Origin: a virus
Taxonomy: Duplodnaviria; Caudoviricetes
IMG/VR virus record: IMGVR_UViG_3300032243_001028
Span: 1 to 64,000 of that record
Strand: one strand, 5' to 3'
DNA length: 64,000 bases
A program made the position numbers and the translations under genes. Shown here piece after piece: positions 8,551-27,528 of the stretch. Numbering within the stretch: the first letter of the stretch is position 1; every line of letters starts with the position of its first letter. Under the pieces are notes generated by a model. The model did not search any database. It was not told the origin of the DNA and worked only from the letters and a program-made list of their open reading frames with translations.

Positions 8551-8619
8551 CTCTAAAACTTGACAAAACTTGACACAGGGGTATAGGCTAAACAAACCAC
8601 TAAACGAACAGGAAAAGAA

Positions 8620-8904: not shown

Positions 8905-8935
8905 ACTGAACTTATCCAACTGAAAGGAAATCAAA

Positions 8936-9690: not shown

Positions 9691-9712
9691 AACTTCTTAG
9701 AAAAGGACAACT

Positions 9713-10012: not shown

Positions 10013-10210
10013 TCAATTGCGAAACCTGTAAAGGCAAACCCCTAGTTTGTAAAATGTATGCTCACGCTAATCGGTGGTATTACTTCTGGTGGTGGCGTGG
10101 AGTTGATAATTTGTTTTGGAAAATCCACGAAAAGTTTTGTAAAGAAACTTGACTTGTATTTGATTAGCTGGTAATTTGGAAACATAACCCGAATGAAAGG
10201 AAAATAAAAA

Positions 10211-10729: not shown

Positions 10730-10824
10730 TGAAACCACTAAACTAAGACCATAGGCAAACGCCTAAATACCTAAGCAAGTATCTAAACTGCTTACCAAAA
10801 AACCACCGATAACAAAGGAATAAA

Positions 10825-11232: not shown

Positions 11233-11246
11233 GCAACCGAAAAGAA

Positions 11247-11280
11247 TTCGCCAAACTAAAAACTTGGCGAATTTTTTTTT
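11247..11280 (+). terminator. Intrinsic terminator
   Basis: TTCGCCAA/TTGGCGAA stem plus T run. Confidence 0.75.
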
Positions 11281-11347
11281 GCCGACACGCTTGACTTACC
11301 GATACCGATAAGGAACAATAGAACTATCCCGAAACTAAGGAGAAAAA

Positions 11348-11731
11348 ATGGGAGAAATAAAGCAAGCCCTAGTTATCAAGACAGCAGGGGACATACAGGT
11401 TGTAAGCTTTACTGCCGAAACCGAATACGAAGTTATCAAGAAAGCCGTTGGTGGTTATTTAGAGATCGTTAGATTATCGCCAACTATGATTATGTGGACA
11501 AACGAGGAAGGTAAACTAGACAGACTACCTTACAACCACAGAGCAACTGCTATTTGGAATTATTATTTTGGAGCTACGGACATAATCGTTGGTGATGTAA
11601 TCCTTACAGGTGGAACTGATACTGACGGAAACTGCTTAGGACTAAGCTTGGCAGACGGAAACAAAATTCAGGTTTTAGTATCGGCTACTAGACTAGAAAA
11701 AGCCGAGATGAAAAAAGGGGAAACCAAGTGA
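11348..11731 (+). CDS. DUF3846 domain protein
   Basis: AVGGYLEIV...NEEGKL..LPYN.RAT...DIIVGDVILTG. Confidence 0.85.
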   Translation: MGEIKQALVIKTAGDIQVVSFTAETEYEVIKKAVGGYLEIVRLSPTMIMWTNEEGKLDRLPYNHRATAIWNYYFGATDIIVGDVILTGGTDTDGNCLGLSLADGNKIQVLVSATRLEKAEMKKGETK

Positions 11732-11997
11732 AAGTTGATTACGAACTATCAAGAATAGCGATCTGGAAAGTAGAGAACGCTAAGACAAAGTTGGAACTTA
11801 CTTATTCTGCCGAGTATGGAGCAGAGATTAGAGCAAGCCTGACTTACCGAACACTAAACGGAGCTTGGATAAAAACAAAAAAGTATTACAACCGAGCCGA
11901 GTGTCTAATGGATTTCGCTACCCTAACCAACAATAAAAAACTGATCAGGGTAATAGAAAGAACAGAGCAGTATCAAAGCTATTTAGAAAATAGTTAG
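11728..11997 (+). CDS. Hypothetical protein
   Basis: GTGA coupling with the upstream gene. Confidence 0.6.
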   Translation: MKVDYELSRIAIWKVENAKTKLELTYSAEYGAEIRASLTYRTLNGAWIKTKKYYNRAECLMDFATLTNNKKLIRVIERTEQYQSYLENS

Positions 11998-12111
11998 ACA
12001 CACCGAAAAAATAAATGAAAATAAACTTGACTTAGATTAGATAAAAGACTAAGTTAGAAGTATTGGAAGTTCCAATAGCCGAAATCGGCACAGAACTAAG
12101 GAAGTAAATAA

Positions 12112-12414
12112 ATGGAAAATCAAGAACCACAAGAAGTAAAAATCACAAGCAAAAAAGCAAAAGAAGCTTATGCCTTGCTAAAAACTATCAAGCTCCAAAT
12201 GGCAGAACTAGAAACACAAAAGGCACAGGCTACCGAAATCTTGGCACAGGCTCTAAATGGTGCCAAGCGTGGAGTTGTTGCTGGACAGGGTTCGTATGTT
12301 TTACAGGCAGGAAAGAACACGAGTTTTGATCGTGCCTTGATGAAAGAGAAGTTCCCTGTTGCGTTTGACGAGTGCCTAAGAACAACCGAATACGAATACA
12401 TAAAACTCGTATAG
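12112..12414 (+). CDS. Hypothetical coiled-coil protein
   Basis: Promoter at 12027, AAGGA SD. Confidence 0.7.
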   Translation: MENQEPQEVKITSKKAKEAYALLKTIKLQMAELETQKAQATEILAQALNGAKRGVVAGQGSYVLQAGKNTSFDRALMKEKFPVAFDECLRTTEYEYIKLV

Positions 12415-12426
12415 CAAGAAGTAGTG

Positions 12427-12475
12427 ATCCCCTAATAAACCGAACCGAGAGTTTGGATTAGGGGATTTACTTTTT
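12427..12475 (+). terminator. Intrinsic terminator
   Basis: ATCCCCTAAT...ATTAGGGGAT stem plus T-rich tail. Confidence 0.65.
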
Positions 12476-12525
12476 ACCAAGAAAAGTGGTAAGGTAGAAC
12501 TACCACCGAAAATGAAAGTAGAAAA

Positions 12526-12708
12526 ATGACCAAGTATGTAAAACACCTAACCAATGATGAACTACTAGAACGCCTAGCAGACGAGTTAGTTAGAACTCAC
12601 CGAGAGACCGCCATAGACCTAGGCTATTGGGAAACAGCAAGAGAAGTTGTAGAACGCTTTTACAGCGTGGAAGTAAAACTAACTATCAAGAAAGCAAAGA
12701 AAAAATGA
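12526..12708 (+). CDS. Hypothetical protein
   Basis: ORF track; purine-rich leader. Confidence 0.6.
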   Translation: MTKYVKHLTNDELLERLADELVRTHRETAIDLGYWETAREVVERFYSVEVKLTIKKAKKK

Positions 12709-13013
12709 CCGAACAGGAAAAGCCGAAAGGCGATTTTAGTGATCCAAAAAGTTTCTATTTCAATGACTACCTAAGCAACCACATAGGACACAAGCTTGAA
12801 GTTGTTGAGTATTGTTGTGGTGTGTGTGGAAAGACCACCGACTTTATGCTCCGTTGTTTCCAAGATGACATAGATGATACTTGTTCCAACGACCCTGCTG
12901 GTATTGCTAGGGAATGGGTGAAACCGCATTGCGAGTGTAATCACAGCCCTTGGACAGCAGACAAGATTTCTAATCTAAAAGAAAACTTGACAGAAAGTAA
13001 TCAAGCCGAGTAA
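12705..13013 (+). CDS. Cys-rich hypothetical protein
   Basis: Start reassigned to ATG 12705 (ATGA coupling). Confidence 0.6.
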   Translation: MTEQEKPKGDFSDPKSFYFNDYLSNHIGHKLEVVEYCCGVCGKTTDFMLRCFQDDIDDTCSNDPAGIAREWVKPHCECNHSPWTADKISNLKENLTESNQAE

Positions 13014-13046
13014 AGTGGAACTACCACCAAACATTAGGAGCAGAAA

Positions 13047-13295
13047 ATGGAAATGAACGAAGTTGAGCAGAAAGCAGTAAAGGCTATCTACAACGACTAC
13101 TACTCTAAGGAGATTAGTGCCGAACAAGCTTTACACGATCTAGAAATGCTTATCAACAATAATGAAGTTGTTGAGAGATGTCCGTTGTGTAAGGCACAGA
13201 TAGACGAGAATAATCCACTCATTGACGCTGAACGCTATTCTGTAAGCGACAAAATCGGTTATTGCGATAACTGCTATGACCCGACACCAGACTAA
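13047..13295 (+). CDS. Hypothetical protein with C-terminal CxxC..CxxC module (paralog of 18026..18223)
   Basis: CPLC....NPLIDAERY...DKIGYCDNCYDPTP. Confidence 0.7.
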   Translation: MEMNEVEQKAVKAIYNDYYSKEISAEQALHDLEMLINNNEVVERCPLCKAQIDENNPLIDAERYSVSDKIGYCDNCYDPTPD

Positions 13296-13513
13296 AAACA
13301 AGCTTGGCAGTTAGTCCCCCCTAACACTACTGCCAACGAGCAAGGGTTTCTCTCATTTCTCCCTTGCTCCACACCTAAGCAAGTGTATAAAAGGCTTATT
13401 TTTATTTAGGGAACATACCGGAAAATAAGCTTGACTAATCTTAGGTAGTTGTGGTTAGATTAGTTAGCACCAAAAAATAAAAAACGATCGACTAAAAATG
13501 AAAGGCAACAAAA

Positions 13514-13759
13514 ATGGAAGATTTTACCGACTTCACACCAAAGAACTTTTACTTTACAGCAGACGGAAACTATGGCGGTGATGAGATTATTCTTGTTGAT
13601 GTTAGCAAGCTTGCCGATAATCACTTACTAGACAGCGTTGAGAACCTAACTAGCGATAACTCTATGTTGAGTTTCGTAAAGTGGTTTATTGCTAATGACC
13701 ACAAGGAAGTTATTACCGCCATTGGTGAGCCTTGTGAAACTTGTAATGAGAACGCTTAG
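13514..13759 (+). CDS. Hypothetical protein
   Basis: Promoter at 13431, GAAAGG SD; YFTADGNYG motif. Confidence 0.7.
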   Translation: MEDFTDFTPKNFYFTADGNYGGDEIILVDVSKLADNHLLDSVENLTSDNSMLSFVKWFIANDHKEVITAIGEPCETCNENA

Positions 13760-13841
13760 ATAATCTTGCGAAAACCCCTAATCTGTGTTTAGATTAGATA
13801 GCACCAAAAAAATAAACCACCGAAAAAAAGGAAAAACAAAA

Positions 13842-14198
13842 ATGGGCGATAGAGCAACTATCCACATCACAAGCGAGCAGTTTGATACAGCCATAGAACT
13901 TTATGGGCATTGGTCAGGCACAGACAACGCTAAGGCAGTTGGTAATGTATTGGACAGAACGGGCAGAATAGGCGACCCGTCTTATCTAACAGCACAGCTA
14001 TTCTATGAATACGCAAAGTTAGGAAACTACAACGGAGAGTTGAGTTTCGGCATTAGAGCAATAAAGGCAGAGCCTAGCGACACTTTTGACGATAATCCTG
14101 TCGTTGTTGTAAATGCCGATACAGGTTCAGTTCAGTATGACGGAGAAACTTATACTGCCGAGCAGTTTGCGTTAGCGTATGCCGATAAGGTAAGTTAG
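13842..14198 (+). CDS. Phage hypothetical protein (MGDRA...LYGHWSG type)
   Basis: Start reassigned to ATG 13842 after AAAGGA. Confidence 0.75.
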   Translation: MGDRATIHITSEQFDTAIELYGHWSGTDNAKAVGNVLDRTGRIGDPSYLTAQLFYEYAKLGNYNGELSFGIRAIKAEPSDTFDDNPVVVVNADTGSVQYDGETYTAEQFALAYADKVS

Positions 14199-14265
14199 AA
14201 CTACACCGATAAAGGTGGTAATCCAAAAGGGTTATCACCTTTATCACTAACAAGGGAAAATAAAA

Positions 14266-14514
14266 ATGAACGAGCAACTAGAACAACTACAACAGAGATT
14301 ACTAGATCTAAAATCTAGACGAGCAGGGTTATTATCTCTATTGGAAGGCATTACCGAGCAGGTAAAGACAACACCGAATAAAGACTTAGCGTTTCTAGAT
14401 AGTTTGGTATCACAGCTAGAACAGGCAGCAATAAAGTCTAATGAACTAGGGGAGATGATTACCGAAACTAGATTAGACATTGCTAAGTTTAGAAAAGAGT
14501 TTGGCTTAGACTAG
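14266..14514 (+). CDS. Coiled-coil hypothetical protein
   Basis: AAGGGA SD; heptad leucines. Confidence 0.65.
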   Translation: MNEQLEQLQQRLLDLKSRRAGLLSLLEGITEQVKTTPNKDLAFLDSLVSQLEQAAIKSNELGEMITETRLDIAKFRKEFGLD

Positions 14515-14556
14515 CCAAGCTGGTAAAGTTAGAACACAACCAAAAAAGGAGAACTA

Positions 14557-14841
14557 ATGAAAACACTTGCCGAGTTCAAAAGAGTATTAGCCAAGCCTGA
14601 TACAACCCTAACGATTATCAAATGCCTAGACATAAAGACAGGTGAGGAAAAACCTCATAAGTTTCTAGATCAGGTTAGAACGATAGGGAAACTACAAACT
14701 AACAGCGTTGCCCTAAAAGATAGCACCGGCAAACTTTCGTGGTTAGACATAGATAAAGCTCGCAACTGGACATTTACCGATAATGTTGCGACCTATGCTG
14801 ATGAATACATTGCCATTGTTTATTTAGTAAAACACGCCTAA
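14557..14841 (+). CDS. Hypothetical protein
   Basis: AAGGAG SD. Confidence 0.7.
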   Translation: MKTLAEFKRVLAKPDTTLTIIKCLDIKTGEEKPHKFLDQVRTIGKLQTNSVALKDSTGKLSWLDIDKARNWTFTDNVATYADEYIAIVYLVKHA

Positions 14842-14927
14842 AAATAACTTGACTATTCCCGAACAGGTTTAGTAAAGTGAGAATAGTTAGGTAAAGTGCC
14901 TAACCTAAATGAGAGTAAGGAACTCAA

Positions 14928-15401
14928 ATGAACACAACACTTATCGCAGTAATGCCATTGGTTTATCTGGCTATCGTTGCTATTCCCCTAATCACCATAG
15001 ACATTAGAGAACACCGACTACCAAACAAGATTATTCTGCCGTTTATTGCTTTGGGTTTGGTTACGGACTTAGTTGCTAGTTTCGCTGGTGGAGAGTGGTG
15101 GAGATTAGGATTAGCTTTGGCAGTTGCTTTTGGTATCGGTATTGCTGGTATGGTTGCTAACTACTTTGACCTTATCGGTATGGGGGACATCAAACTATTC
15201 TTTGGTAGTTCCCTAGTAATCGGCTGGTTTGTCTGGTGGTTGCCGTTGGTATTGGTTGCCGTAACGCTCATTGTTGGTATTCTCGTAACGCTTTATCTGT
15301 TGGTGTTCCGTAAGGTTAGTGCTGGAACTAGCGTTCCACTAGGACCTTATGCCATTGTTCTATCCCTAGTTATTGGAACTTACGGAGTTATGAGTATCTA
15401 A
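14928..15401 (+). CDS. Type IV prepilin peptidase (peptidase A24, GxGD aspartyl protease)
   Basis: IDIREHRLPNKI, GMGDIKL, VPLGPY; multiple transmembrane helices. Confidence 0.85.
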   Translation: MNTTLIAVMPLVYLAIVAIPLITIDIREHRLPNKIILPFIALGLVTDLVASFAGGEWWRLGLALAVAFGIGIAGMVANYFDLIGMGDIKLFFGSSLVIGWFVWWLPLVLVAVTLIVGILVTLYLLVFRKVSAGTSVPLGPYAIVLSLVIGTYGVMSI

Positions 15402-15579
15402 GGAAGTAAGCCGAACCCCTTAGCCTAAATGGTTAGGGGGTTTAGCTTTGCCCGAAAAAAGACGATCTGGTGAAACCCGACACGCTAAAAAATAGTTGCC
15501 GATAAACTTGACTATTTCTATACGGAGATAGTAATCTTGGAGTAGTTAGGTAAATCGCCTAACAGATACGGAGATAAAA

Positions 15580-15792
15580 ATGAGTGGTTATGACATTGGC
15601 GGTGGCTATGACGGCTGGAAAACTGCTACCCCTTGGGATAATGAACGAGAGATTACTGTTTCGTTTGAGTGTGGCAAGTGTGAAGTTGAGAACGACAGCA
15701 TAGAAGTTGTAGTTGGTGGCAGGTCTGGAGATGTAGATGTTGAGTGTGCCGAGTGTGGTGAGAACAACAGCGTTAGTTTCGGTGATGACTAA
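15580..15792 (+). CDS. Zn-ribbon protein (paralog of 18501..18695)
   Basis: VSFECGKCEVEN...ECAECGENN. Confidence 0.7.
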   Translation: MSGYDIGGGYDGWKTATPWDNEREITVSFECGKCEVENDSIEVVVGGRSGDVDVECAECGENNSVSFGDD

Positions 15793-15900
15793 ATAGACTT
15801 CACTAGGCAAAAATCAAAACTGAGTAATCAAAACTGAGAGCCTAGTGAAACACCTGAGCAAGTGTATAAAAGGCTCACCTAAATCTTTAGAAAGGCAAAA

Positions 15901-16077
15901 GTGAAAGACAGAAAATCTAAGATCGCCTGTTGGTCTTGTGGCAAGCTTACGGAAGTAAAATACATTGGTGAGAACACACATAAACAAGAGTGCCGAGAGT
16001 GTAAAGAGTGGCGAGCAGAACGCTATGCTGTATTACAGGGGAACACCGATAAAGAGAGATTAGATAATGCTGAATAA
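15901..16077 (+). CDS. Small CxxC protein (58 aa, not in ORF track)
   Basis: GAAAGG SD, GTG start, CWSC...CREC. Confidence 0.5.
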   Translation: MKDRKSKIACWSCGKLTEVKYIGENTHKQECRECKEWRAERYAVLQGNTDKERLDNAE

Positions 16078-16269
16078 AATTGCTAGAAGTCTTAGAAGTA
16101 TTAGCGGAGTGCTAATGAATACAGGACACCGACTTAGTTGGTATGCGAGCAAGCTTGATACCAAGTCAAGAGATCGTAGAAACGCTAAAAAATAAAATGC
16201 GGATAAACTTGACAAAGTTTCCAAACAGCAACTAAACTGAATACATCAAGACGAAAAGAGGTGAAAAAA

Positions 16270-16497
16270 ATGGGAAAAAAAGTTGATACTTGGACTTGGT
16301 TCGTTGCTCAATACGAGCAACAGGGATACAAATCTCTAAACCAATTCGCTATCGCAACAGGCTTACAGAAGTCTAGCCTTAGCCGATACTTTCATAATCA
16401 ACGACACATTCCGTCAAATACTTTGGCGGTGCTATGTCGTGAGCTGGAAGTTTCTCCAACTGAATTACTGATCGCAATTGGCGAGAAAGTAAAGTAA
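16270..16497 (+). CDS. XRE/Cro-like HTH protein
   Basis: SLNQFAIATGLQKSSLSRYF....PS..TL..LC..LEVSP. Confidence 0.8.
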   Translation: MGKKVDTWTWFVAQYEQQGYKSLNQFAIATGLQKSSLSRYFHNQRHIPSNTLAVLCRELEVSPTELLIAIGEKVK

Positions 16498-16562
16498 GTG
16501 CCGAACCTGAGCAAGTTCTAAAAAGGCTCAACTAAAAACTAATAGAAAGTTGCGGTGAAGTT

Positions 16563-16754
16563 GTGAAAACATTTTTGGCAGTATTAGGTTTATGGTCTGC
16601 TGGTTGCGGTATCTATTATGGATTTATAGCCGACAATAATCAGCGAGCATTTGAGATTGGATTTACTTTGGCATTTCTGCTATTGTTTGTAGCGTTGCTA
16701 CTAGCAGTTGCCGAGCTTCCTAGATTTATTAGAAAGCGTAATAGGCGTAAATAG
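16563..16754 (+). CDS. Small 2-TM membrane protein
   Basis: Two hydrophobic stretches and a basic C-terminus. Confidence 0.55.
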   Translation: MKTFLAVLGLWSAGCGIYYGFIADNNQRAFEIGFTLAFLLLFVALLLAVAELPRFIRKRNRRK

Positions 16755-16901
16755 ACTTGGGAGAGGGTTTCTTTCATTTCCCCTCTGCCGAACACACCTG
16801 AACAAGTGTCTAAAAGGTTCATTTATTTTTTAGAGATCGGGAATTTTTTATGCCGATTAGAAGTTATTATTTATGTAATGACTAACTACAAAGGAGACAA
16901 A

Positions 16902-17060
16902 ATGAAAAGAACTAAATTCACACCAGAACGCCTTGCTGAGCTGGACAGACTAGACAGATTTAGAACCTATGACTTACTTTATAGGGCTATGCTTGCCGGT
17001 CTAATCCCCTTTGAGCCGAACCTAAGACTAAAGCGTATGGTCAGGGTAAAGAAGTCTTAG
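16902..17060 (+). CDS. Small basic hypothetical protein
   Basis: AAGGAG SD before ATG 16902. Confidence 0.55.
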   Translation: MKRTKFTPERLAELDRLDRFRTYDLLYRAMLAGLIPFEPNLRLKRMVRVKKS

Positions 17061-17171
17061 AGAGATTTCTAGAGATCCAAAAAATAAATACCGACACGCT
17101 TGCTTATTTCCATTTGGAGATGCTAAAGTTGAAGTAGTTAGGTGAAGTGCCTAGCAGTTACGGAGTAAAAA

Positions 17172-17450
17172 ATGGAAAAGAAAGAATACCGAGTTTATTG
17201 GTGGATTGAGATTTACCCTTTCGGCTATGACAGAGATTGCGAACTCAGGAACATTGAACTAATGGGAACTGTTTTTGCCGAAGATGAAGATGATGCTATG
17301 GATCAGGTTAGAGAAGATAACGAGATTATTGGTGATGATTTCATTGGTTACCCTGACCCTGATTATGTTGATAGTCACCCCGACATTGAGATAGTTTGGA
17401 CTGGCGATATGTCTGCCGAGTTAGTTTTGGACTTGACTAAGCAGGACTAA
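17172..17450 (+). CDS. Acidic hypothetical protein
   Basis: Own promoter-hairpin cassette, GGAG SD. Confidence 0.7.
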   Translation: MEKKEYRVYWWIEIYPFGYDRDCELRNIELMGTVFAEDEDDAMDQVREDNEIIGDDFIGYPDPDYVDSHPDIEIVWTGDMSAELVLDLTKQD

Positions 17451-17465
17451 ACCCCGAGAGTAGAA

Positions 17466-17500
17466 AGCCCTTAGCCGAAAGGCTAGGGGTTTTTTATTTT
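17466..17500 (+). terminator. Intrinsic terminator
   Basis: CCCTTAGCC-GAAA-GGCTAGGGG plus T run. Confidence 0.8.
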
Positions 17501-17595
17501 TGGACACGCCAGAATAATCTTGACTAAATGCCGATAAGTGATCTAGGATTTTAGTAGTTAGGTAATCTCCTAATCAAAATAAAGAAAGTAGAAAA

Positions 17596-17874
17596 ATGAA
17601 ACTACAAGTTACGAAGTCAAGCCCAGTCTGGCAAAAGATTATTGCCGATAATAAAGAGTGGTTTTCTAAATCAACACTGGAGTTTTTCAAATCAACTATT
17701 TTTTGGTCAAGCCTGAAAGAAACTGAACAGGGTCTAAAGTTTGTAACTAGCGAATGGAACTACCAGCAGGACACTAAGGTTTTTACTATCAGGCTAGTCA
17801 CCGATACAGGCATAGAAACTATTAGTGAATACGGACAATACCCTAGCCTTGTAGAAGCCTTACGAGCCTTATAG
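17596..17874 (+). CDS. Hypothetical protein
   Basis: Cassette gene; WFSKSTLEFFKS..FVTSE motif. Confidence 0.7.
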   Translation: MKLQVTKSSPVWQKIIADNKEWFSKSTLEFFKSTIFWSSLKETEQGLKFVTSEWNYQQDTKVFTIRLVTDTGIETISEYGQYPSLVEALRAL

Positions 17875-18025
17875 AGATCGTGAAACTGAACCCTTGCCGA
17901 AGCTCAGGCAGGGGTTTAGTTTTATCTAGACACGCCAAAATAAAATACTTAGAAACTTGACGGAATAAAACTTGCGGTGATAGAGTTTTATTAGTTAGGC
18001 AAGTTGCCGAACAGAAATGAGAAAA

Positions 18026-18223
18026 ATGGAAAACTTTCTAGACATCAACAAGGTTGCTAAAATTGTAGGACTGCCAGCAACTAACGAAGTCTGCCCTAGT
18101 TGTGATGAACTTATTACGGCTACTAATCCCCTGATAGATACTGAACGCTATACGGCTAATGATAAGACTGGCTATTGCGATAGTTGTTATGACCCGACCC
18201 CTTACTATCCCAAGATAGATTAG
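18026..18223 (+). CDS. CxxC..CxxC protein (paralog of 13047..13295)
   Basis: CPSC....NPLIDTERY...DKTGYCDSCYDPTP. Confidence 0.7.
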   Translation: MENFLDINKVAKIVGLPATNEVCPSCDELITATNPLIDTERYTANDKTGYCDSCYDPTPYYPKID

Positions 18224-18231
18224 GGGGGATT

Positions 18232-18396
18232 ATGTTTATAGAGAAACCAGCTGACGCTGAACAAGCGGAACAATTCGCATTAGGACTAATCCAAGAACCA
18301 AAAGATTACGGAACATTAGTTTTAGTTCCTTGTAAGCACAAGGTATTCTGCCGAACTCACGGAAGTTTCTGGATCAGGAAAAGATTTAGAAAATAG
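18232..18396 (+). CDS. Small hypothetical protein (54 aa, not in ORF track)
   Basis: GGGGGA SD; MFIEKPADAEQ...RFRK. Confidence 0.45.
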   Translation: MFIEKPADAEQAEQFALGLIQEPKDYGTLVLVPCKHKVFCRTHGSFWIRKRFRK

Positions 18397-18500
18397 AAAC
18401 ACGCAAAAAAAAATTATTTATTTATTTGACTATTTCTATACGGAGATGCTAAAGTTGGATTAGTTAGGCAAACGACCTAACGGAAAATGGAGATGTAAAG

Positions 18501-18695
18501 ATGTGGGAATACGGAGATGATGAAGTTTCTGTTGTTGTGTCTTTCACTTGCGACAAATGCGAGTATGAAAATGAAGACAGCGAGCAAACAATAGGCAGGG
18601 GTGAAGGTCAGCACATAGTAATCTGTGATGAGTGTGATACCGAGAACACGATCATCATTGAGCCACCTGAGCCACCTGAGCCTTGGGAAGACTAA
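18501..18695 (+). CDS. Zn-ribbon protein (paralog of 15580..15792)
   Basis: VSFTCDKCEYEN...ICDECDTEN. Confidence 0.7.
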   Translation: MWEYGDDEVSVVVSFTCDKCEYENEDSEQTIGRGEGQHIVICDECDTENTIIIEPPEPPEPWED

Positions 18696-18818
18696 TCCTA
18701 AACACCTGAGCAAGTGTCTAAACTGCTTATTTTTATTTGCTACATACTTGACTATTTCCAGCTGGAACTGGTAAAGTTTTATTAGTTAGGAAAAATCACC
18801 TAGCGGAAATGAGAAAAA

Positions 18819-18998
18819 ATGTTTTACTTACAGACAACATCAACCCTAGTAAGACTTTCTAATGGAGAAACTTTTACTCAATGTGAAATCTGCGGTAGAT
18901 GTTATGAGAACGAACACTGGGACAGAACCAAGATAACCAGGAACGACTGGGCTTGGACTTGCCACCACAGCGACCAGGATACCGGAATACTAGAATAA
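18819..18998 (+). CDS. Small Cys/His protein (59 aa, not in ORF track)
   Basis: Follows promoter-hairpin at 18748; MFYLQTT...CEICGRC...TGILE. Confidence 0.55.
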   Translation: MFYLQTTSTLVRLSNGETFTQCEICGRCYENEHWDRTKITRNDWAWTCHHSDQDTGILE

Positions 18999-19195
18999 TC
19001 CGGTTGCCGATAATCCCCTGGTAGAGATACCGGGGGTTTATCTTTACCAGGTGCGACCTGGTGCCAGGATCTAAAATCCAGGGACAAGCTTGCCAGGATA
19101 AATTATTAGACACGCCAGGAAAAGATTTGACTTTTCCCGGGTGGAACTGGTAGATTTTTATTAGTCAGGTAAAACCCCCTGGCAGAAAGAAAAAA

Positions 19196-19543
19196 ATGAA
19201 CCAGGAACAGCTAGAACTATTTGAGATGATAGTTGATGATGCCGGTATGTCTATTAACTACTGGGCAAGCACAGCAGAACACAGCACAGAAAAGCAAACT
19301 TACCAGATCACTTTATTACCGGACTGTGTTGATGAAACTGCCGGTGTAGTAGATAAGACAATCTCTTACCAGGATTTATTAGACGCTACCAGGAAGCTTG
19401 CTAGCGGTGAAGTAAGCGTGAACCCGGCCACAAAGTCAGTCTGCCAGGCAATTATTAGCGACCCGGCAGATGTAGATTATGACGCTACTGATACGGACGT
19501 TATTGTCCAGGTTGCTATGTTTGGTGAAATTGTATTCGGCTAG
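19196..19543 (+). CDS. Phage hypothetical protein
   Basis: INYWA...DYDATDTDVIVQVAMFGEIVFG C-terminal motif. Confidence 0.75.
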   Translation: MNQEQLELFEMIVDDAGMSINYWASTAEHSTEKQTYQITLLPDCVDETAGVVDKTISYQDLLDATRKLASGEVSVNPATKSVCQAIISDPADVDYDATDTDVIVQVAMFGEIVFG

Positions 19544-19740
19544 ACAACTAAGAGATGTCCCCCTGGTAGAGATACCTGGGGGATTATTTCTATCCTGGCC
19601 AGGACTGCCAGGGCAAGCTAAACCAGGAACCAGGAACCAGAAACAGTTAGACACATAAGGTTTAGAGTAGAGCCGGACAGGTTGATTATTATATGCTTAG
19701 ATTATTAGAGAACTTTCTCTACTTATACGGAAGGTATAAA

Positions 19741-19962
19741 ATGAAAAAATTTATTATAAGAGCTACCATTGCTTTACTGCTGGCTATTGCCGGTTCCTTA
19801 TCAACACAAATATCCAGGCTTTATTTAGATCAATATATTTTCTTTGATGATAATGCCAGCACTCTTGCTATGTATGCCAGGTGGGAAGTTGTTACCTGGG
19901 TATTTGCCGGGCTATCCTTGATTACCCTGGCCTGGGCTATTATCTCTACCAGAAAAGATTAA
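19741..19962 (+). CDS. 2-TM membrane protein
   Basis: GGAAGG SD; two hydrophobic helices. Confidence 0.6.
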   Translation: MKKFIIRATIALLLAIAGSLSTQISRLYLDQYIFFDDNASTLAMYARWEVVTWVFAGLSLITLAWAIISTRKD

Positions 19963-19969
19963 ACCAGGG

Positions 19970-20662
19970 CTAGTCTTTTTTTACAAAATGATAATCAGCG
20001 TCCGGCCCATTATTACAAAACATTCCGTAGTTCTCAAAGCCGATAGAATCCAGGTACTCAATAATTGTTTCTCTTTCCGGTGATCCAATATTGTACTCAA
20101 CATGCCGAAGCTCAATAATTAAATGCTTACATGATTTAATTACTTCAGTGGCTCCCATAAGAACATCTAGCTCTGCTCCCTGGACATCAATCTTTACCAG
20201 GTCAGGTAGATTGAACTTTTTACTCTTGACTACGGAATCTAAAGTTTCGCTTTGAAGTTTTACAATTTTAGAATCATCATATAGAAAAGTAGCTTCCGGA
20301 TTATATGCCGGGTTCTCTCTATAATATGAGTTACCACCAAAGTCTGTATTGTTTTGGTAGAAATCAATTGTCTTGCCGGACTCGCTACTTAGTAAGCCGA
20401 TGTGATACTTATGGTTGCTTTCTATATACAGTGGTTCAAATATGTCAGTGGCGTCAAATAAAACTATTTCAGATCCTGGCCAGACTTTTTCAGCTTCACT
20501 AGTCCAGTGCAGAACACAGGAGCCGATGTCATATATTACTCCAGGAGTAAATCCATAATGAGTTTTTATAGCAGATAGGTAAGCTGCATGTTGCCTAGGA
20601 ATAGACATACCAGTCCGCACTCGATTTACATGATCTAAGGTTTCTTTATCAAAGTTTTTCAT
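19970..20662 (-). CDS. FkbM-family SAM-dependent methyltransferase
   Basis: IYDIGS, ETLDSV, DLVKIDVQGAELDVLMGA. Confidence 0.85.
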   Translation of the reverse strand: MKNFDKETLDHVNRVRTGMSIPRQHAAYLSAIKTHYGFTPGVIYDIGSCVLHWTSEAEKVWPGSEIVLFDATDIFEPLYIESNHKYHIGLLSSESGKTIDFYQNNTDFGGNSYYRENPAYNPEATFLYDDSKIVKLQSETLDSVVKSKKFNLPDLVKIDVQGAELDVLMGATEVIKSCKHLIIELRHVEYNIGSPERETIIEYLDSIGFENYGMFCNNGPDADYHFVKKD

Positions 20663-20764
20663 AATATAACCTTACTAGAGTGTTGCCTTTGCAAGTCAGA
20701 GTAGACACGCCATATGATCGTTATAAATCTGTTACGGTAGAATGGATTGAGATTGGAGCTTAAC

Positions 20765-20971
20765 ATGAACATACCGAGTCAAAAACTAGATACCGCATAC
20801 CAGGAGTATAAAAAAGGAACTCTTGATCCTAAAGAGCTAACCGTAGAAGAGAACCTGGATCTTCAATATGAATACTTTTTACATCAGAAAGAGATCATGG
20901 ATCCCGATGTAATCAAGTTTGTAAAGCTTCTGATGATAGCTTCCGAGTCTGGAACAGTCACCGAAGAGTAG
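20765..20971 (+). CDS. Hypothetical protein
   Basis: GGAG SD before ATG 20765. Confidence 0.55.
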   Translation: MNIPSQKLDTAYQEYKKGTLDPKELTVEENLDLQYEYFLHQKEIMDPDVIKFVKLLMIASESGTVTEE

Positions 20972-21083
20972 CATTTAGTGCTACAATCTAAAAATACCGT
21001 TTAAAGATGAACGGTTATGGGAGAACCCAACAATAACGACCGAGTACTAACTCACCTCAAAAATCAGGAAAGGTAGGTCGCCA

Positions 21084-22997: not shown

Positions 22998-24395
22998 ATG
23001 GCTAAAAGTATCATGGAGCAGATCGCGATGCTCCCCCCTGAAGAACAGGCTAAAGTGCTATCCGGTATGGATGCAGACTCACTCATGTGGGACTGGTCAG
23101 TCTGGGGTAGACCAGAGCAACAAGCACCTGAAGGCGACTGGAACATCTGGGCTTACATTGCTGGTCGTGGTGCTGGTAAGACTAGAACTGCTGCTGAATG
23201 GGTTCGTGAAGAAGCTAAGCACACAACTACAGGACAGAGGCGCTTTGCTTTAGTTGCTCGTACTGCAGCTGACGTGCGAGATGTAATCGTTGAAGGTGAG
23301 TCTGGCATTATGAATGTCACTCCACCTAGTGAGAGACCTTTATATGAACCCTCTAAGAGAAGACTTACTTGGCCTAATGGTAATACGGCTACTTGTTTCA
23401 CTGCTGATGAACCTGACTCTTTGCGTGGTCCTCAGTTTACTCATGCCTGGGGCGATGAGATCGCTGCCTGGAGACAGACTCCTGATGCAGCAGGTATGAC
23501 TGCTTTTGATAACCTTCGTGTTGGTACTCGTCTAGGAGCTCAGCCTAAGATCATAGTAACTACTACACCTAAGCGTGTACCTCTACTCTATAAACTAATT
23601 GAAGAGAGCAAGACCGGTCGTGTAGTGATTACTAGAGGATCTACTCTTGATAACTCAGGTAACCTATCCGGTGCTTATCTTGATGCTATTACAGGAGTCT
23701 ATGCTGGAACCCGCCTTGCTCAGCAAGAGATCTATGGAGAGATGCTCGATGACGTTGAGGGGGCATTGTGGACATCAGAGCTTATCGACTTAGGTAGACA
23801 AGCTGGTATGCCTTTAGGTACTCCTCTAAGAATCATTGGAGTTGACCCTAGCGTTGCTGAAAACCCTAGAGATGAATGCGGTATCGTTGTATGCGCTGCT
23901 AGTTCTGAAAGAGATCTTTATAAGCGTCAAGCTTGGGTACTTGAGGACGCAAGCGTATTAGGCTCACCTACAGTCTGGGCACAGAAGGTCGTTGAGATGG
24001 CTCGCAAGTGGGGCTGCCCTGTTGTTGCTGAGGTGAATCAAGGTGGAGCCTTAGTGAAGAATGCTATTCACACTATTGACCCTAACATTGTAGTTCTTGA
24101 GGTTCATAGCAAATACGGTAAGGCTCTTAGAGCTGAGCCAGTTACTCTTGCCTATGAGCAAGGCAGAGTTCATCATGTTGGATTCTTGGCAGACTTAGAG
24201 AGTCAAATGTATTCTTGGATTCCAGGCGAGGGCAAGTCCCCTGACAGAGTTGATGCTCTTGTTCATGCTATGACTGCCTTACTTATCAAACCACCTTCAG
24301 GCTTTACAGGGGGCAAGATAACTGCTAAGTCCATGGGCAGCCGAAAGATAGATGTAGGCAGCAAGAGTAGCCGATCAATCTTTAGGCTTAGATAA
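22998..24395 (+). CDS. terL: Terminase large subunit
   Basis: Walker A GRGAGKT, LRGPQF..AWGDE Walker B, TTTP motif III, RNase H-like GVDPS and PDRVDA. Confidence 0.93.
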   Translation: MAKSIMEQIAMLPPEEQAKVLSGMDADSLMWDWSVWGRPEQQAPEGDWNIWAYIAGRGAGKTRTAAEWVREEAKHTTTGQRRFALVARTAADVRDVIVEGESGIMNVTPPSERPLYEPSKRRLTWPNGNTATCFTADEPDSLRGPQFTHAWGDEIAAWRQTPDAAGMTAFDNLRVGTRLGAQPKIIVTTTPKRVPLLYKLIEESKTGRVVITRGSTLDNSGNLSGAYLDAITGVYAGTRLAQQEIYGEMLDDVEGALWTSELIDLGRQAGMPLGTPLRIIGVDPSVAENPRDECGIVVCAASSERDLYKRQAWVLEDASVLGSPTVWAQKVVEMARKWGCPVVAEVNQGGALVKNAIHTIDPNIVVLEVHSKYGKALRAEPVTLAYEQGRVHHVGFLADLESQMYSWIPGEGKSPDRVDALVHAMTALLIKPPSGFTGGKITAKSMGSRKIDVGSKSSRSIFRLR

Positions 24396-24396
24396 A

Positions 24397-24433
24397 CTAA
24401 ACCCCCTAGCCTAGTAAGGCTAAGGGGCTTAGT
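24397..24433. terminator. Hairpin terminator between terL and the converging cassette
   Basis: ACTAAACCCCCTAGCCT...AGGCTAAGGGGCTTAGT. Confidence 0.6.
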
Positions 24434-24521
24434 GTCTAAGGATAAATGAAAGTAAAACCTTAGACTTTTGGGGGAGAGATTAGTCCCCCTGCCTATTAGA
24501 GCAAGGGGACTAACCTAACGC

Positions 24522-24743
24522 TTACTTGTCTAGTATTGGAGCTAAGGCAAACACTAGGCTAAACATTCCACCGAATAGCAAGCCGTTGCTAATTATTTCA
24601 TTCATAGTTGATGACTGTCCTGCTCCATAGGCTACTAGCAACCCATAGCCTAAGACATAGGCAATTGCTACAACAGGGGTGATAACTATTCCTGCTAGTA
24701 ATCTTCTAACTACTACAACTGAGGTTCTAACTTCTCTGCTCAT
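24522..24743 (-). CDS. 2-TM membrane protein (reverse cassette 1)
   Basis: Own promoter (TTGACA at 24822), hairpin and AAGGA SD. Confidence 0.7.
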   Translation of the reverse strand: MSREVRTSVVVVRRLLAGIVITPVVAIAYVLGYGLLVAYGAGQSSTMNEIISNGLLFGGMFSLVFALAPILDK

Positions 24744-24949
24744 TTTTTAGTCCTTATCATTTATTTAGTTAGGCACTTTACCTAACTAAGTCAAGACTAA
24801 TCTAATGCGGTGAGCCTGTCAAGCGTGTTTCATAACATTTAGATAACAACCTAGAATTTGGATCTCGCAACTAAGGCAGGGCAAGGCAGGGCAAGGCAGG
24901 GTAAAGAATAACCCCCCTATTGCTAGGGGGGCTATCTATTTATCTAGAC

Positions 24950-25168
24950 TTATCTAAGTCCTAGGCGTTCCTCTGCCTGAGCCTCTAAATAGGTAACTTC
25001 CTCAGCATCATTAGTTCCCTGAGCATTTCCAAATAATTCCCAAGTAAAGAGTTCATTGGTTAGTTCCTGAGTTGCCTTGATAATTTCCTGAGCCTTTTCC
25101 CAACTATGAACTTCATAGACAGGGGCAACGCCATCAGCAGTAGTAATTCTTAGTGAATAGATTTTCAT
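24950..25168 (-). CDS. Hypothetical protein (reverse cassette 2)
   Basis: Promoter at 25249, hairpin, AAAGGA SD, terminator at about 24911-24932. Confidence 0.7.
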   Translation of the reverse strand: MKIYSLRITTADGVAPVYEVHSWEKAQEIIKATQELTNELFTWELFGNAQGTNDAEEVTYLEAQAEERLGLR

Positions 25169-25404
25169 TTTTATTCCTTTTCATTTTTGGATAGTTAGGC
25201 AACTTACCTAACTACTTACTAACTTAGTCCCTATAAGGCAACAAGTCAAGTTTATTTGATAACAATTTGATAACAGAAGCTAACCGGCAATACCGAACCT
25301 AATGCCGAACTAACTAGGCAGGGCAAGGCAGGATAGGGCTAGGCTCACAGGGTAAAGAATAAACCCTGCCTATTACTAGGCAGGGCTTAGACTTAGAGTT
25401 TAGG

Positions 25405-25632
25405 CTATTCGCCAATTTGTTCTTTATACTGACTAGTTGGGATTAGTTCTAGGACAGAGTTTAGGCAGGTGTCGCATAGGGCTAGGATAAAGTCGTGAGT
25501 GGAGTTGTTCAATAGTTCGCTTGTTGCTTTGTTCTGGCAGTTCTCATACTCGCAAGCAAAACCTAAACCCTTACAACCTGTCGCTGTGTATGTGATGTAG
25601 TCCTTGACTACAAATTTTTTGTTGTTGCTCAT
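25405..25632 (-). CDS. Zn-finger protein (reverse cassette 3)
   Basis: CEYENC...CDTC; promoter at 25712. Confidence 0.7.
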   Translation of the reverse strand: MSNNKKFVVKDYITYTATGCKGLGFACEYENCQNKATSELLNNSTHDFILALCDTCLNSVLELIPTSQYKEQIGE

Positions 25633-25775
25633 TTTTTACCTTTTCATTTTTTTGGACATTAGGCAATTACCTAACTACTATCAACATTAGGGCTATGCGG
25701 TTAGTATGTCAAGTTTATTTGATAACTTTTTGGTAAAGCTTTTCGATCAAAACTGCCGAACCTAATGCCGAATTA

Positions 25776-26130
25776 GACAGGCTCAGGAAGACAGGCTCAG
25801 GCTCAGGCTTAGGCTTAGACAGGCTCAGGCTCACAGGCTAGACAGGGTTAGGGCTAATGCGGTTAGGGCTAATGCGGTTAGGGCTAATGCGGTTAGGGCT
25901 AATGCGGACAGGCTCAGGCTCACAGGCTCAGGCTCACAGGCACAGGCTCAGGCTCAGGCTCACAGGCACAGGCTCAGGCTCAGGCTCACAGGCTCAGGCT
26001 TAGGCTCAGGCTTAGGCTCAGGCACAGGCTCACAGGCTCAGGCTTAGGCTCAGGCTTAGGCTCAGGCACAGGCTCACAGGCTCACAGGCTCAGGCTCACA
26101 GGCTTAGGCTCACAGGCTTAGGCTCACAGG
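25776..26130 (+). repeat. Low-complexity tandem repeat tract of AGGCTC/AGGCTT/ACAGGCTC units with 4x GGTTAGGGCTAATGC
   Basis: Read directly; the 15-mer occurs x4 at 25846-25905. Confidence 0.95.
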
Positions 26131-26179
26131 GTAAAGAATAAACCCTGCCTATTACTAGGCAGGGCTTAGACTTAGTTCC

Positions 26180-26362
26180 CTAGCGTGTCTTAGGGAACTG
26201 CTGAGTTTCCCTAGCCTGAGTTTCACACTGCTCACAAGCGAACTGCTCAGGCTCAGGGTAAGAGTTCCACAAGACAGCCTTAGCAGAGTTGGCACAGCCA
26301 AGAGTGTCGCAAGTCTTAGCGTGGTTGTTGTATGAGTTGATGTCTAACTGAGTGATAAGCAT
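26180..26362 (-). CDS. Zn-finger protein (reverse cassette 4; distant paralog of cassette 3)
   Basis: CDTLGC...CEQC; promoter at 26441. Confidence 0.65.
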   Translation of the reverse strand: MLITQLDINSYNNHAKTCDTLGCANSAKAVLWNSYPEPEQFACEQCETQARETQQFPKTR

Positions 26363-26504
26363 TTTTTACCTTTTCATTTTTTTGGACATTAGGCAATTAC
26401 CTAACTATTACTATCTAAGCAACTTTTTTATTTTTTATCAAGTTCATTTAGGCATTTTGATAACCTTTTTTATAACTTTTTTGTTATCAAATTTGATCAA
26501 AATT

Positions 26505-26520
26505 TCGAACACTTGTTCGA
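26505..26520. promoter_or_regulatory. Actinobacterial LexA (SOS) box
   Basis: TCGAAC-ACTT-GTTCGA is a perfect match to TCGAAC-N4-GTTCGA, in a divergent intergenic region. Confidence 0.6.
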
Positions 26521-26651
26521 AGCTTGGAAACGATTTTGGACAAGTCAAAATATACCTACTGCCAGATCGCAGGCCAAAGTCAAAAAAAGTAAAGGTATCA
26601 TTTTTAAATAAAGTACGTAAACTTAAGACGAAAAGATGATACACTAGATCC

Positions 26652-27158
26652 ATGACTAGACGTTTAGCAAGAGATCTACCCCTCCCTCAATCCGAAGTCG
26701 ACCTCCTCAACAAACTGGACCGACGTCGACTACTTTCCAGAGTGCACCAGCTCTATCACGCTGGATGGACTCTCTCGTCCATTGGGAACGCCTTCACGCC
26801 CCCAAAGGGTCGATCGACTGTCAAGGCTTGGGTAGACCAGAACGACACGTTTAACCAGATCGACGTCCCTATTCCAAATCCCGAACACAAGACCCCCAAG
26901 AACGGCTACCAACGTCTGACTCCCGTTTCTCCCGGAGTTCCTCCGATCACCGCTGAGCAGCTACGCCAACTAGCCCCGGTTGCCCAACAGTATCGAGCCC
27001 GTACTCCAAGCGGTTCTAAACCTGCTATTGCAAACGCCCTTATGAATCAGATCATCCGCGATCTACGTTCCATCGACGTCTCTATTGCCGATATTGCTCG
27101 TGCAGCTGGAGTTACTCACCGTGCAATTTCAAAACGTATCTCTAAGCTAGGATTGTAA
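26652..27158 (+). CDS. Double-HTH DNA-binding protein (possible terminase small subunit or regulator), probably leaderless
   Basis: GWTLSSIGNAF...RSTVKAWV and VSIADIARAAGVTHRAISKRI; TACACT 6 nt before ATG. Confidence 0.65.
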   Translation: MTRRLARDLPLPQSEVDLLNKLDRRRLLSRVHQLYHAGWTLSSIGNAFTPPKGRSTVKAWVDQNDTFNQIDVPIPNPEHKTPKNGYQRLTPVSPGVPPITAEQLRQLAPVAQQYRARTPSGSKPAIANALMNQIIRDLRSIDVSIADIARAAGVTHRAISKRISKLGL

Positions 27159-27159
27159 T

Positions 27160-27528
27160 ATGCAAATACTTCACGACGTTTTCCCTGCCCACGTTGCCCT
27201 TGCCGCTCCGAACGTTTTCACCGACGTTCATCAACTCATATCCCACCCAAACAACCTCGGAACCTACTACATTCAAACTGCCCGAGTTATTGTTACCGAC
27301 ACCAACATCACCATTGCAGCCGATGCTCCTGAAGGCCCGCAAATAGTTTTCAACGAACGTTATACGTTCTTTGAGAAGGCAGCATCCCCAGAAATAGACT
27401 CATACGTAATCACTGAATCTGGAAAAATGCTTGCCTACAAGAAAGACGTTAACTGCGGTTGTGGCTCACGTCTACGTTCTTGGAACCCATATAAAACCCT
27501 AACCTCGAATCGAGATCCAATTGCTTAA
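27160..27528 (+). CDS. Hypothetical protein upstream of portal
   Basis: ORF track; C-terminal NCGCGSRL motif. Confidence 0.7.
   Translation: MQILHDVFPAHVALAAPNVFTDVHQLISHPNNLGTYYIQTARVIVTDTNITIAADAPEGPQIVFNERYTFFEKAASPEIDSYVITESGKMLAYKKDVNCGCGSRLRSWNPYKTLTSNRDPIA

Follow-up and report, generated by a model that had tools for sequence, protein, structure and literature searches.

CCWGG, CCGG and CCSGG are classic targets of enzymes of the Type II and Dcm kinds. Clusters of another such target, GATC, make up the pac site of phage P1 (seven Dam hexamers) and underlie SeqA sequestration at oriC, and in both systems the cognate methyltransferase is known. Heptamer arrays, SRL and SRR, flank the terminal repeat of phage T7; their function is unsettled. 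Here we analyse a dense cluster of CCWGG and CCGG sites, the CC(W)GG island, at the border of an early region that is almost devoid of such sites. The window considered, 64,000 nucleotides, comprises positions 1-64000 of a 135,096-bp single viral contig from a large freshwater phage (IMG/VR record IMGVR_UViG_3300032243_001028; GC content 41%); the two ends of the contig share an overlap of 123 bp.

T5-like phages resist restriction unless the sites lie in the first-entering region, sites elsewhere being harmless (excerpts of PMC10644984). The first-entering DNA of T5 ends in a conserved, repeat-dense injection-stop region (iss), in which Davison proposed paired DnaA boxes (bioRxiv 10.1101/866236, in part). 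Terminal clusters of Chi sites have been documented in the lambdoid phage LLS, where 20 of 23 Chi are in the active orientation near the terminase end, and in Pseudomonas phage MD8, where the ratio is 32 to 0 (sections of PMC12315714, Genome Res 2025).

The CC(W)GG island and the palindrome-purged region

The first-pass annotation of this DNA had reported 28 CCWGG and 12 CCGG sites in 18937-19967, where about one CCWGG was expected, a single CCWGG in the preceding 16 kb, and a density that stays elevated to about 20860. The recount gives the same figures. The 28 CCWGG start at positions 18937 to 19964, the only CCWGG between 1351 and 18936 is at 8161, and seven more are found to the right of the island, in 20050-20854. 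The background beyond 27 kb (27001-end) is 1.21 CCWGG and 1.68 CCGG per 1031 bp, and the Poisson probabilities of the island counts at this rate are 2e-28 and 2e-7, respectively. The GC content of the island region is 0.438. In 2000 dinucleotide-preserving shuffles of the island, CCWGG had a mean of 2.63 and a maximum of 9 (the observed number being 27 in this test, as the last site extends one base beyond 19967), and CCGG a mean of 2.22 and a maximum of 7. CCSGG is also enriched, with 6 sites against 1.0 expected. The whole genome contains 174 CCWGG, and the remaining 108 kb hold them at the expected level (127 observed, 108 expected). A genome-wide sliding count, which the annotation had proposed, finds no other 1031-bp window of the circular genome with more than 7. 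Thus the island is unique in this genome.

Both orientations are enriched. The plus strand has 19 CCAGG (0.7 expected) and 9 CCTGG (0.6 expected, about 15-fold), and CCGG occurs 12 times against 2.4 expected. The flanks vary from site to site with only a loose preference for RCCAGGA, CCAGGA being found 11 times on the plus strand; thus the shared element is CCWGG itself. Distances of 7, 14 and 21 bp dominate between the sites, reflecting a 7-bp tandem period, and no 10-11-bp signal of helical phasing was observed in the island.

The island occupies the right edge of a 16-kb zone from which ten of the sixteen 4-bp palindromes have been purged: CATG, TTAA, CGCG, GGCC, ATAT, TGCA, GCGC, GTAC, ACGT and TCGA. 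The zone, 3078-19253, is also purged of CCWGG (1 observed, 17 expected), CCSGG (1 and 12), GGWCC (1 and 17) and GGSCC (0 and 12), and is nearly free of many 6-bp palindromes. It tolerates GATC, AGCT and CTAG. Only 4 sites of the ten palindromes occur in 18937-19690. This part of the island is therefore still palindrome-poor, and the CC(W)GG sites have been added on top of the purge, rather than tolerated because the purge had ended. The features of the region, with open reading frames (ORFs) named by the notation ORF plus number, are as follows.

3078-19253, plus-strand genes: early region nearly free of the ten 4-bp palindromes (5 sites, about 594 expected from base composition)
18937-19967, no strand: CC(W)GG island with 28 CCWGG, 12 CCGG and 6 CCSGG by motif counts on the duplex
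18819-18998, plus strand: ORF59, 59-aa zinc-ribbon-like protein (CxxC...CxH); its last 62 nt hold the first 2 CCWGG and 1 CCGG
19015-19046, plus strand: intrinsic terminator 1, stem CCCCTGGTA/TACCGGGGG followed by a T tract (-17.9 kcal/mol, z -2.9); 1 CCWGG
19047-19126, plus strand: intergenic array 1 (80 bp), 6 CCWGG including the hairpin ACCAGGT-GCG-ACCTGGT
19127-19192, plus strand: early-type promoter TTGACT-18-TAGATT with TG, CCCGGG in the spacer, then a 5' hairpin TCAGG...CCTGG with 1 CCWGG
19196-19543, plus strand: ORF115, phrog_2355, a family of unknown function; 5 CCWGG and 5 CCGG through codon choice
19557-19592, plus strand: terminator-like hairpin 2, CCCCCTGGTA/TACCTGGGGG, with CCTGG in both arms (2 CCWGG); fold -19.0 kcal/mol
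19593-19640, plus strand: intergenic array 2 (about 50 bp), 5 CCWGG, consisting of the palindrome CCTGGCCAGG and AACCAGG heptamers
19741-19962, plus strand: ORF89, 73 aa from ATG 19741, judged from its sequence a small two-helix membrane protein; 5 CCWGG, 2 CCGG
Directly past the ORF89 stop: the final CCWGG of the 28
19970-20662, minus strand: FkbM-family methyltransferase gene, a variable insert between ORF89 and ORF74; 5 CCWGG (1.8 expected)
20765-20971, plus strand: ORF74, tail of the elevated density; 2 CCWGG (5 in the homologue of contig L010)

This placement agrees with the earlier description of the sites as spread over intergenic DNA, terminators, a promoter hairpin and three coding sequences. 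Hairpin 2 was absent from the output of the terminator scan that listed terminator 1.

The plus-strand genes of the 16-kb early region are served by a repeated promoter, TTGACT-N18-TAAAGT with a preceding TG, and a GTTAGG...CCTAAC hairpin follows each copy. In 15487-19196 the early promoter is followed by this hairpin and a ribosome-binding site, and gene ends carry a second repeat, ACCTGAGCAAGTGT.TAAA (repeat-scan families D3-D9). Another purged stretch of about 2 kb, 24400-26500, follows the large terminase gene; it contains four small genes, all on the minus strand and equipped with the promoter-hairpin units of the early region, as well as tandem arrays of the CAGGCT type (25763-26140) and four copies of GGTTAGGGCTAATGC (25846-25905).

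A weak CCWGG cluster was observed to the left of the early region, in late genes (genome 134363-134973 and window 200-512; 9 sites in 1.1 kb, from -610 to +512), as well as in the relative G006 (11 sites, 26208-27330). A pair of flanking clusters was considered and rejected, as the left cluster mostly reflects amino-acid content (gene 26-739: 4 sites, 2.79 expected, P 0.12).

Conservation, site turnover and selection

Homologues of ORF115 were found at 13 IMG/VR loci, and one more contig with an island, L020, was identified by a helix-turn-helix (HTH) gene search. All ten related contigs of the island clade, which judging by their names come from ten different datasets, have 19-38 CCWGG per 1031 bp at the same place, preceded by a stretch nearly free of CCWGG and of the ten palindromes. 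The ORF115 identity in these contigs is 83-92%, and the gene is absent in L020. The region is also covered, in pieces, by Logan contigs of three more runs. No island was found in four contigs of two sister clades (L012/13 and L014/15), where the ORF115 homologue (71% and 58% identity) lies inside the purged zone. Of the 80 loci identified with the downstream HTH gene, 48 had a usable upstream flank and 44 of these were sufficiently long; among the 44, at least 19 CCWGG per kb were observed only in three loci of the island clade, the next best locus having 10.

The alignment of seven island sequences demonstrates that single sites turn over while the density is kept. Array 1 is replaced by six CCAGGTT units in L010, and array 2 is expanded to about ten CCAGGAA in L006 and to four GCCAGGA in L004 and L007. 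In L008, an ACC-AGG site is lost and two sites are gained 15 bp away. CCGG and CCWGG are swapped at homologous positions in the promoter spacer (CCCAGG in L004 in place of CCCGGG), in a terminator arm and after the ORF59 stop. L003, L008, L010 and a variant contig of run X2 lack ORF89, and L020, which has no ORF115, still has 19 sites in about 650 bp. In the contig of run X2, 19545-19967 (423 bp, array 2 and ORF89) is swapped for 78 other letters, followed by the FkbM gene. Contigs of other runs fragment inside the island, a sign of strain-level micro-diversity.

One could suppose that the island has no function, being a by-product of microsatellite expansion in the spacers, of hitch-hiking, or of biased mismatch repair converting CTWGG and CCWAG into CCWGG. 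The heptamer arrays do expand and contract in steps consistent with the 7, 14 and 21-bp spacing, the assemblies from other samples break here, and the one-step neighbours CCWAG and CTWGG, of which the zone has as many as 87 in 15.8 kb, number only 1 in the 1 kb of the island. However, such a drive is not seen in the remaining 108 kb, the density is held in all ten contigs despite the turnover, and the coding sequences, considered next, resist this explanation. We regard it as improbable.

The numbers of CCWGG in coding sequences were compared with codon-resampled expectations (2000 resamplings per ORF). ORF115 has 5 sites against 0.62 expected, ORF89 has 5 against 0.33, and the FkbM gene 5 against 1.78; none of these counts was reached in any of the 2000 resamplings. 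The excess thus arises in three separate coding sequences, one of them in an inserted gene. Among 86 ORFs of at least 100 aa, ORF115 ranks first by excess and FkbM second. No enrichment over the codon-resampled expectation was observed in the TerL and NlpC genes. In codon alignments, the island clade has TAC-CAG-GAT (YQD) where the sister clades have TAC-CAA-GAC, and GTC-CAG-GTT (VQV) where the sister clades have GTT-CAG-GTT or GTC-CAA-GTT. The amino acid sequence is affected as well: residue 3 of ORF115 is glutamine (AAC-CAG-GAA) only in the island clade, and one site is made with the rare arginine codon AGG. In the three island ORFs, CAG accounts for 8 of the 12 glutamine codons (0.40 elsewhere), AGG for 4 of the 9 arginine codons (0.07 elsewhere), and CCG for all three proline codons. 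Thus the island is not a product of chance; the density of CC(W)GG on the duplex is under selection, at both synonymous and non-synonymous positions.

The two orientations bear on the molecule that is read. CCAGGA is frequent on the plus strand, which is the transcribed strand of ORF59, ORF115 and ORF89, and an RNA-level element could be imagined, in which CCAGGA-rich transcripts act as a sponge for an RNA-binding protein, as in the case of CsrB. However, CCTGG is enriched too, the minus-strand FkbM gene carries both the CCAGG and the CCTGG forms, terminators split the region into separate transcripts, and no Rfam family was found at E <= 1 in 18.9-20 kb. This explanation is highly improbable. 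On the other hand, the enrichment of both orientations together with the exchange of CCGG and CCWGG points to a symmetric reader of duplex DNA and argues against a strand-specific or RNA signal.

These data bear on several claims of the first-pass annotation, whose description of the island stood up in detail. It had called the array deliberately built; in the sense of being kept by selection this is borne out by conservation in ten contigs of ten with turnover, by the codon-resampling excess and by the skewed codons. It had suggested looking for conservation at synonymous positions, and the YQD and VQV codons indeed are chosen so as to form sites in the island clade. The annotation named two findings that would have undermined it, an assembly chimera from another genome and absence from orthologous regions of relatives. 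The former is excluded by orthologous islands at the same place in all ten related contigs and by the Logan contigs, and the latter is contradicted by the same ten contigs of the close clade. The only part that did not hold is the possible link with the adjacent FkbM methyltransferase. The assignment of the gene to the family is reliable in terms of score (Pfam PF05050, 1e-14), but beyond the window the gene was found in a single related contig, L003 (74% identity), and in Logan contigs of two runs, X2 and X4; the other nine related contigs do not have it. A role of this methyltransferase at the island was rejected, as the gene, a variable minus-strand insert, does not regularly accompany the island.

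A possible boundary element or restriction-related device

Tentatively, we favour the view that the island binds protein and forms a boundary element where early DNA meets late DNA, in a manner comparable to the T5 injection-stop region. It would be a cis-acting DNA element selected for the sheer density of CC(W)GG on the duplex. A dimeric protein reading CC..GG half-sites may coat about 1 kb and form a nucleoprotein block. The reader could be a host protein of the restriction-modification type or an early phage protein, and the clade-specific zinc-ribbon protein ORF59 is the only nameable candidate binder. The block would be situated at the junction of the site-free early region and the first ordinary late genes, those of the lysis cassette and the large terminase, and the two hairpin terminators made from the same motif inside it may assist it. 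Together they would stop early transcription, as well as DNA entry if the latter is stepwise or transcription-driven. The binding of a protein, its identity and the process blocked are what we infer here; the arguments come from the uniqueness of the island, its conservation in all ten contigs, the density kept despite turnover, the bent codons, the two orientations, the position and the T5 precedent.

ORF59 accompanies the island in 12 of 12 island loci and in none of 8 others. It has no Pfam or PHROG family, and the ESM Atlas gave only unnamed clusters for both ORF115 and ORF59. More generally, Pfam and PHROG searches covered 20 proteins of the zone (Pfam), 10 in or next to the island (both collections) and 8-10 around the second purged stretch. 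Among the proteins scanned there was no nuclease, methyltransferase or restriction-type DNA binder; the matches were AAA_5, SSB, DUF3846, Cro/C1 HTH, peptidase A24 and DUF7447. Searches for C5 and N4/N6 DNA methyltransferases (PF00145, PF01555) gave no matches in the phage, the controls being positive, and there were no matches to Vsr. The EcoRII-N and EcoRII-C searches were uninformative, as the control matched nowhere. Since the phage has no DNA methyltransferase, any methylation of the island would come from the host.

A number of observations weigh against the boundary element. The co-occurrence of ORF59 with the island is confined to one clade and thus amounts to one evolutionary event; its AlphaFold model folds poorly (pLDDT 67.6), and a Foldseek search of the model against PDB gave no matches at E <= 0.001. 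The sister clades do without CCWGG and have other spacer arrays instead, of TGATCA and AGCTCA in L014 and of TGCGGG, GTGTGT and GTTTTT in L013. More than half of the island is coding (the 3' end of ORF59, ORF115 and ORF89), and it has no DnaA box (TTWTNCACA; the single match in the window is at 52847), unlike the T5 region. The depths of contigs, a rough measure, do not double in the zone compared with the sequence beyond it (9.67 and 9.85 in run X2; 14.4-18 and 17.9-28.9 in run X4), so that a long terminal repeat covering the zone is unsupported. Finally, in an unrelated phage group described below, the CCWGG-rich stretches adjoin the large terminase gene with no purged zone, and thus appear to be linked to the packaging module rather than to a zone.

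The motifs themselves suggest a different interpretation, since they match known Type II and Dcm specificities. The island may be a restriction decoy, a sacrificial stretch that titrates a host CCWGG-specific enzyme of the EcoRII/Dcm type, or is cut by it without harm, during entry of the remaining genome or the onset of its protection. Or else it may be a switch read via host methylation. In the adjacent 16 kb these motifs have been purged along with other palindromes, and thus the hosts very likely restrict such sites. Moreover, the spectrum of avoided sites varies between clades. L013 (1-16900) removes GATC (0 observed, 63 expected) and AGCT (9 and 63) and keeps TTAA (61 and 96), and in L014 (1500-10350) CCGG, GGCC and CCWGG are kept and GATC is three-fold over expectation. 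Such clade-specific spectra are what host-specific restriction pressure would produce. The island genes are dispensable, as follows from the absence of ORF115 in L020 and of ORF89 in L003, L008 and L010, and in two contigs of the unrelated group, L103 and L133, CCWGG in both orientations is nearly absent outside the rich stretch (4 sites, about 20 expected).

However, under the restriction mechanisms known to us more sites mean more cleavage, and a high density of sites activates enzymes of the EcoRII type. As CCWGG is present elsewhere in the genome at the expected level (127 observed, 108 expected), a 1-kb sink would offer little protection. No DNA methyltransferase is encoded by the phage itself, and no cis-acting DNA decoy was found in the literature at the level of titles and abstracts. 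The arrays of L014 also speak against a decoy, as their GATC and AGCT motifs are not avoided by the zone of that contig. We therefore consider a decoy or methylation switch rather unlikely. The same applies to a related idea, in which the island is a cis-acting DNA anti-restriction device at the junction of the site-free DNA and the site-bearing remainder, acting either as a sacrificial "lightning rod" on dispensable DNA or as a loading pad for a spreading protective protein; this too would be a somewhat unlikely outcome.

Arrays of different short repeats are found in other clades in the terminator-to-promoter spacer at the end of the purged zone. In L014, two arrays come right after the ORF115 terminator, at 10400-11260: the first consists of TGATCA units, extends over about 450 bp and has a density of about 47 GATC per kb, and the second, of AGCTCA units, extends over about 400 bp with 59 AGCT per kb. 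Inside the zone of this contig, GATC and CCGG form a further spacer array, and the PG-binding gene includes a coding repeat (DPIVDQ) laden with GATC (3880-4010, 6724-6960). L013 has arrays of TGCGGG, GTTTTT and GTGTGT, L029 of GGGCTT and GGCT, and L104 has GCCAGGT heptamers. Only in the island clade has the array motif spread into neighbouring coding sequence while being banned from the adjacent zone.

Position upstream of the terminase gene and comparison with known systems

The island is on the strand of the large terminase gene (TerL, 22998-24395), 3 kb upstream of it, and the lysis-terminase block comes after the island. The genes to the right are the minus-strand FkbM gene, ORF74, an NlpC/P60 lipoprotein, small membrane proteins, a PG-binding protein and TerL. 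TerL shares 76.6% identity with its counterpart in the metagenome-assembled Actinomycetia phage DSL-LC01 and 46-62% identity with the TerL proteins of Microbacterium, Gordonia and Arthrobacter phages. DSL-LC01, the nearest named phage, has neither zone nor island within its first 65 kb, and a blastn search with 18500-21000 gave no match in 50,697 phage records. Gordonia phage Sixama was considered as a guide to the genome ends and rejected, its small genes being on the opposite strand, which allows no inference.

Two genes further to the right may be mentioned. The gene at 26652-27158 encodes a conserved 168-aa protein with a C-terminal HTH; it is the first gene past the arrays in every clade, ahead of the portal gene. 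The protein matches no family and may be a small terminase. The 3234-aa ORF at 30846-40550, after the portal gene, appears by eye, with no search run, to have nuclease- and helicase-like motifs and a zincin motif near the C-terminus, and on this reading may recall antirestriction proteins that travel with DNA.

The IMG/VR collection was scanned for four CCAGG at 7-bp spacing. This yielded 69 stretches, of which 68 were ranked by CCWGG density, and the 17 densest were compared together with the window in an all-against-all protein comparison. A separate group of 8-9 contigs emerged (L102, L103, L105, L115, L133, L158, L162, L164 and partly L106; hereinafter group 2). At 60-63% identity, its TerL resembles the large terminases of phage 023Pt_psg01, Pelagibacter phage HTVC027P and Phage DSL-LC04, and the complete relatives of the group are about 60 kb long. 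The CCWGG-rich stretches are 1.3-5.5 kb long, have the layout terminator, array, AT-rich promoter, and end less than 0.5 kb upstream of TerL in all four contigs that hold this gene; no palindrome-free zone was observed beside them. On the TerL-sense strand, CCTGG is enriched 9-19 fold and CCAGG 2-4 fold. The commonest 8-mers, CCTGGTGC and CCTGGCGC, are close to the proteobacterial Chi as quoted in the sections of PMC12315714 cited above. In DSL-LC04 (L166, 10150-11700), a stretch rich in GGCC, CCGG and CCWGG occupies the same place upstream of TerL.

The likeliest reading of the group 2 stretches is that they are terminal Chi clusters: the enrichment is orientation-biased, immediately upstream of TerL, and made of Chi-like 8-mers. 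Given the documented clusters of LLS and MD8 (PMC12315714, in part), one may ask whether the island, too, is a Chi-like barrier, where a sequence such as RCCAGGA on the plus strand switches off a host exonuclease of the RecBCD/AddAB/AdnAB type and shields the early region from a DNA end to the right. The island is 3 kb upstream of TerL, and the ratio of CCAGG to CCTGG on the TerL-sense strand is about 2:1 in the window and in six of seven relatives (17:9 to 30:13; 11:9 in L020). Six of the nine CCTGG of the island are within hairpins or palindromes and may be structural partners of CCAGG. On the other hand, the minority orientation is itself about 15-fold enriched, including three CCTGG in the coding sequence of ORF89 and many outside hairpins in L010. 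CCGG and CCSGG are co-enriched and interchangeable with CCWGG, which a single-strand reader should not tolerate, and the flanking bases are only loosely conserved. Since the minority orientation is enriched and CCGG co-selected, the Chi reading fits the island less well than it fits group 2, and we believe it to be unlikely for the former.

The same position could suggest a packaging-start site or a replication origin, made of clustered, possibly methylation-gated short sites as the GATC of P1 pac and oriC. Indeed, the island is on the TerL strand, its heptamer arrays stand beside AT-rich stretches, other clades of the family have short-repeat arrays directly upstream of the HTH-portal module, and in group 2 and DSL-LC04 a terminator is separated from the AT-rich promoter of TerL by GC-rich palindrome arrays. 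However, the sister clades L013 and L014 must package and replicate their DNA with no island, half of the sites are in coding sequence across 1 kb, and the phage has no methyltransferase. In contrast to P1 pac, no small terminase family was found nearby, among 18 proteins scanned around the island. The GC skew has no origin-like switch at the island beyond the effect of gene orientation. Thus a packaging or origin role is distinctly unlikely. The probability left over by all these readings belongs to something not yet thought of.

The island exists as described, is unique and conserved, and is under positive selection. Loss of restriction sites is known in phages, but in listings and abstracts we have not found a description of a 25-fold local gain that overrides codons and amino acids. 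Selection for and against one motif operates in the same genome, a few bases apart, and the zone is among the most complete cases of palindrome purging that we have met. The reader of the island would be a handle on staged DNA entry in large lytic phages, on the split between early and late expression, and on the protection of the bulk genome. The CCWGG-rich stretches upstream of TerL in an unrelated group suggest a wider class of density-coded DNA signals, which can be found in metagenomes by simple counting. If the anti-restriction reading is true, islands upstream of the terminase genes of other phages would be variants of the same principle.

Several known systems share some of the features of the island. 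Restriction by Type IIE enzymes such as EcoRII involves the same motif, and the neighbouring zone shows the expected avoidance; however, the known response is loss or thinning of sites, whereas the island is a 25-fold local gain. As in oriC and P1 pac, a control region is densely packed with copies of a short palindromic target of methyltransferases, so that density and methylation state, and not a single site, would be read; but those clusters occupy 0.15-0.25 kb, are non-coding or within one gene and use the 4-bp GATC, while the island covers 1 kb over three genes. The SRL and SRR arrays of T7 are likewise tandem 7-bp repeats in non-coding spacers that border a defined genome segment; they are no palindromes of the restriction type, however, and stay outside coding sequence. 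The Chi clusters of LLS and MD8, as presented in the parts of PMC12315714 used here, are local clusters of a short motif by the terminase end of the map, kept by selection, but they have ratios of 20:3 and 32:0 with a host 8-mer, compared with 19:9, co-enriched CCGG and loose flanks in the island.

The system closest to the favoured reading is the injection-stop region of T5. It ends the first-step-transfer DNA, is non-coding and located in a 10-kb terminal repeat, whereas more than half of the island is coding and one 5-bp motif dominates. As the non-coding character, the DnaA boxes and the terminal repeat are lacking or doubtful here, the island is not classed in the T5 iss family. Bulk-genome protection, in the excerpts of bioRxiv 10.1101/866236 and PMC10644984, is still unresolved for T5 itself. 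What the two phages have in common is the arrangement: the island begins, at 18937, at the distal border of an early region kept free of restriction sites, it contains repeats and hairpins, and in both cases a dense stretch ends the site-free early region; the 1-kb stretch of the present phage is conserved while its genes vary.

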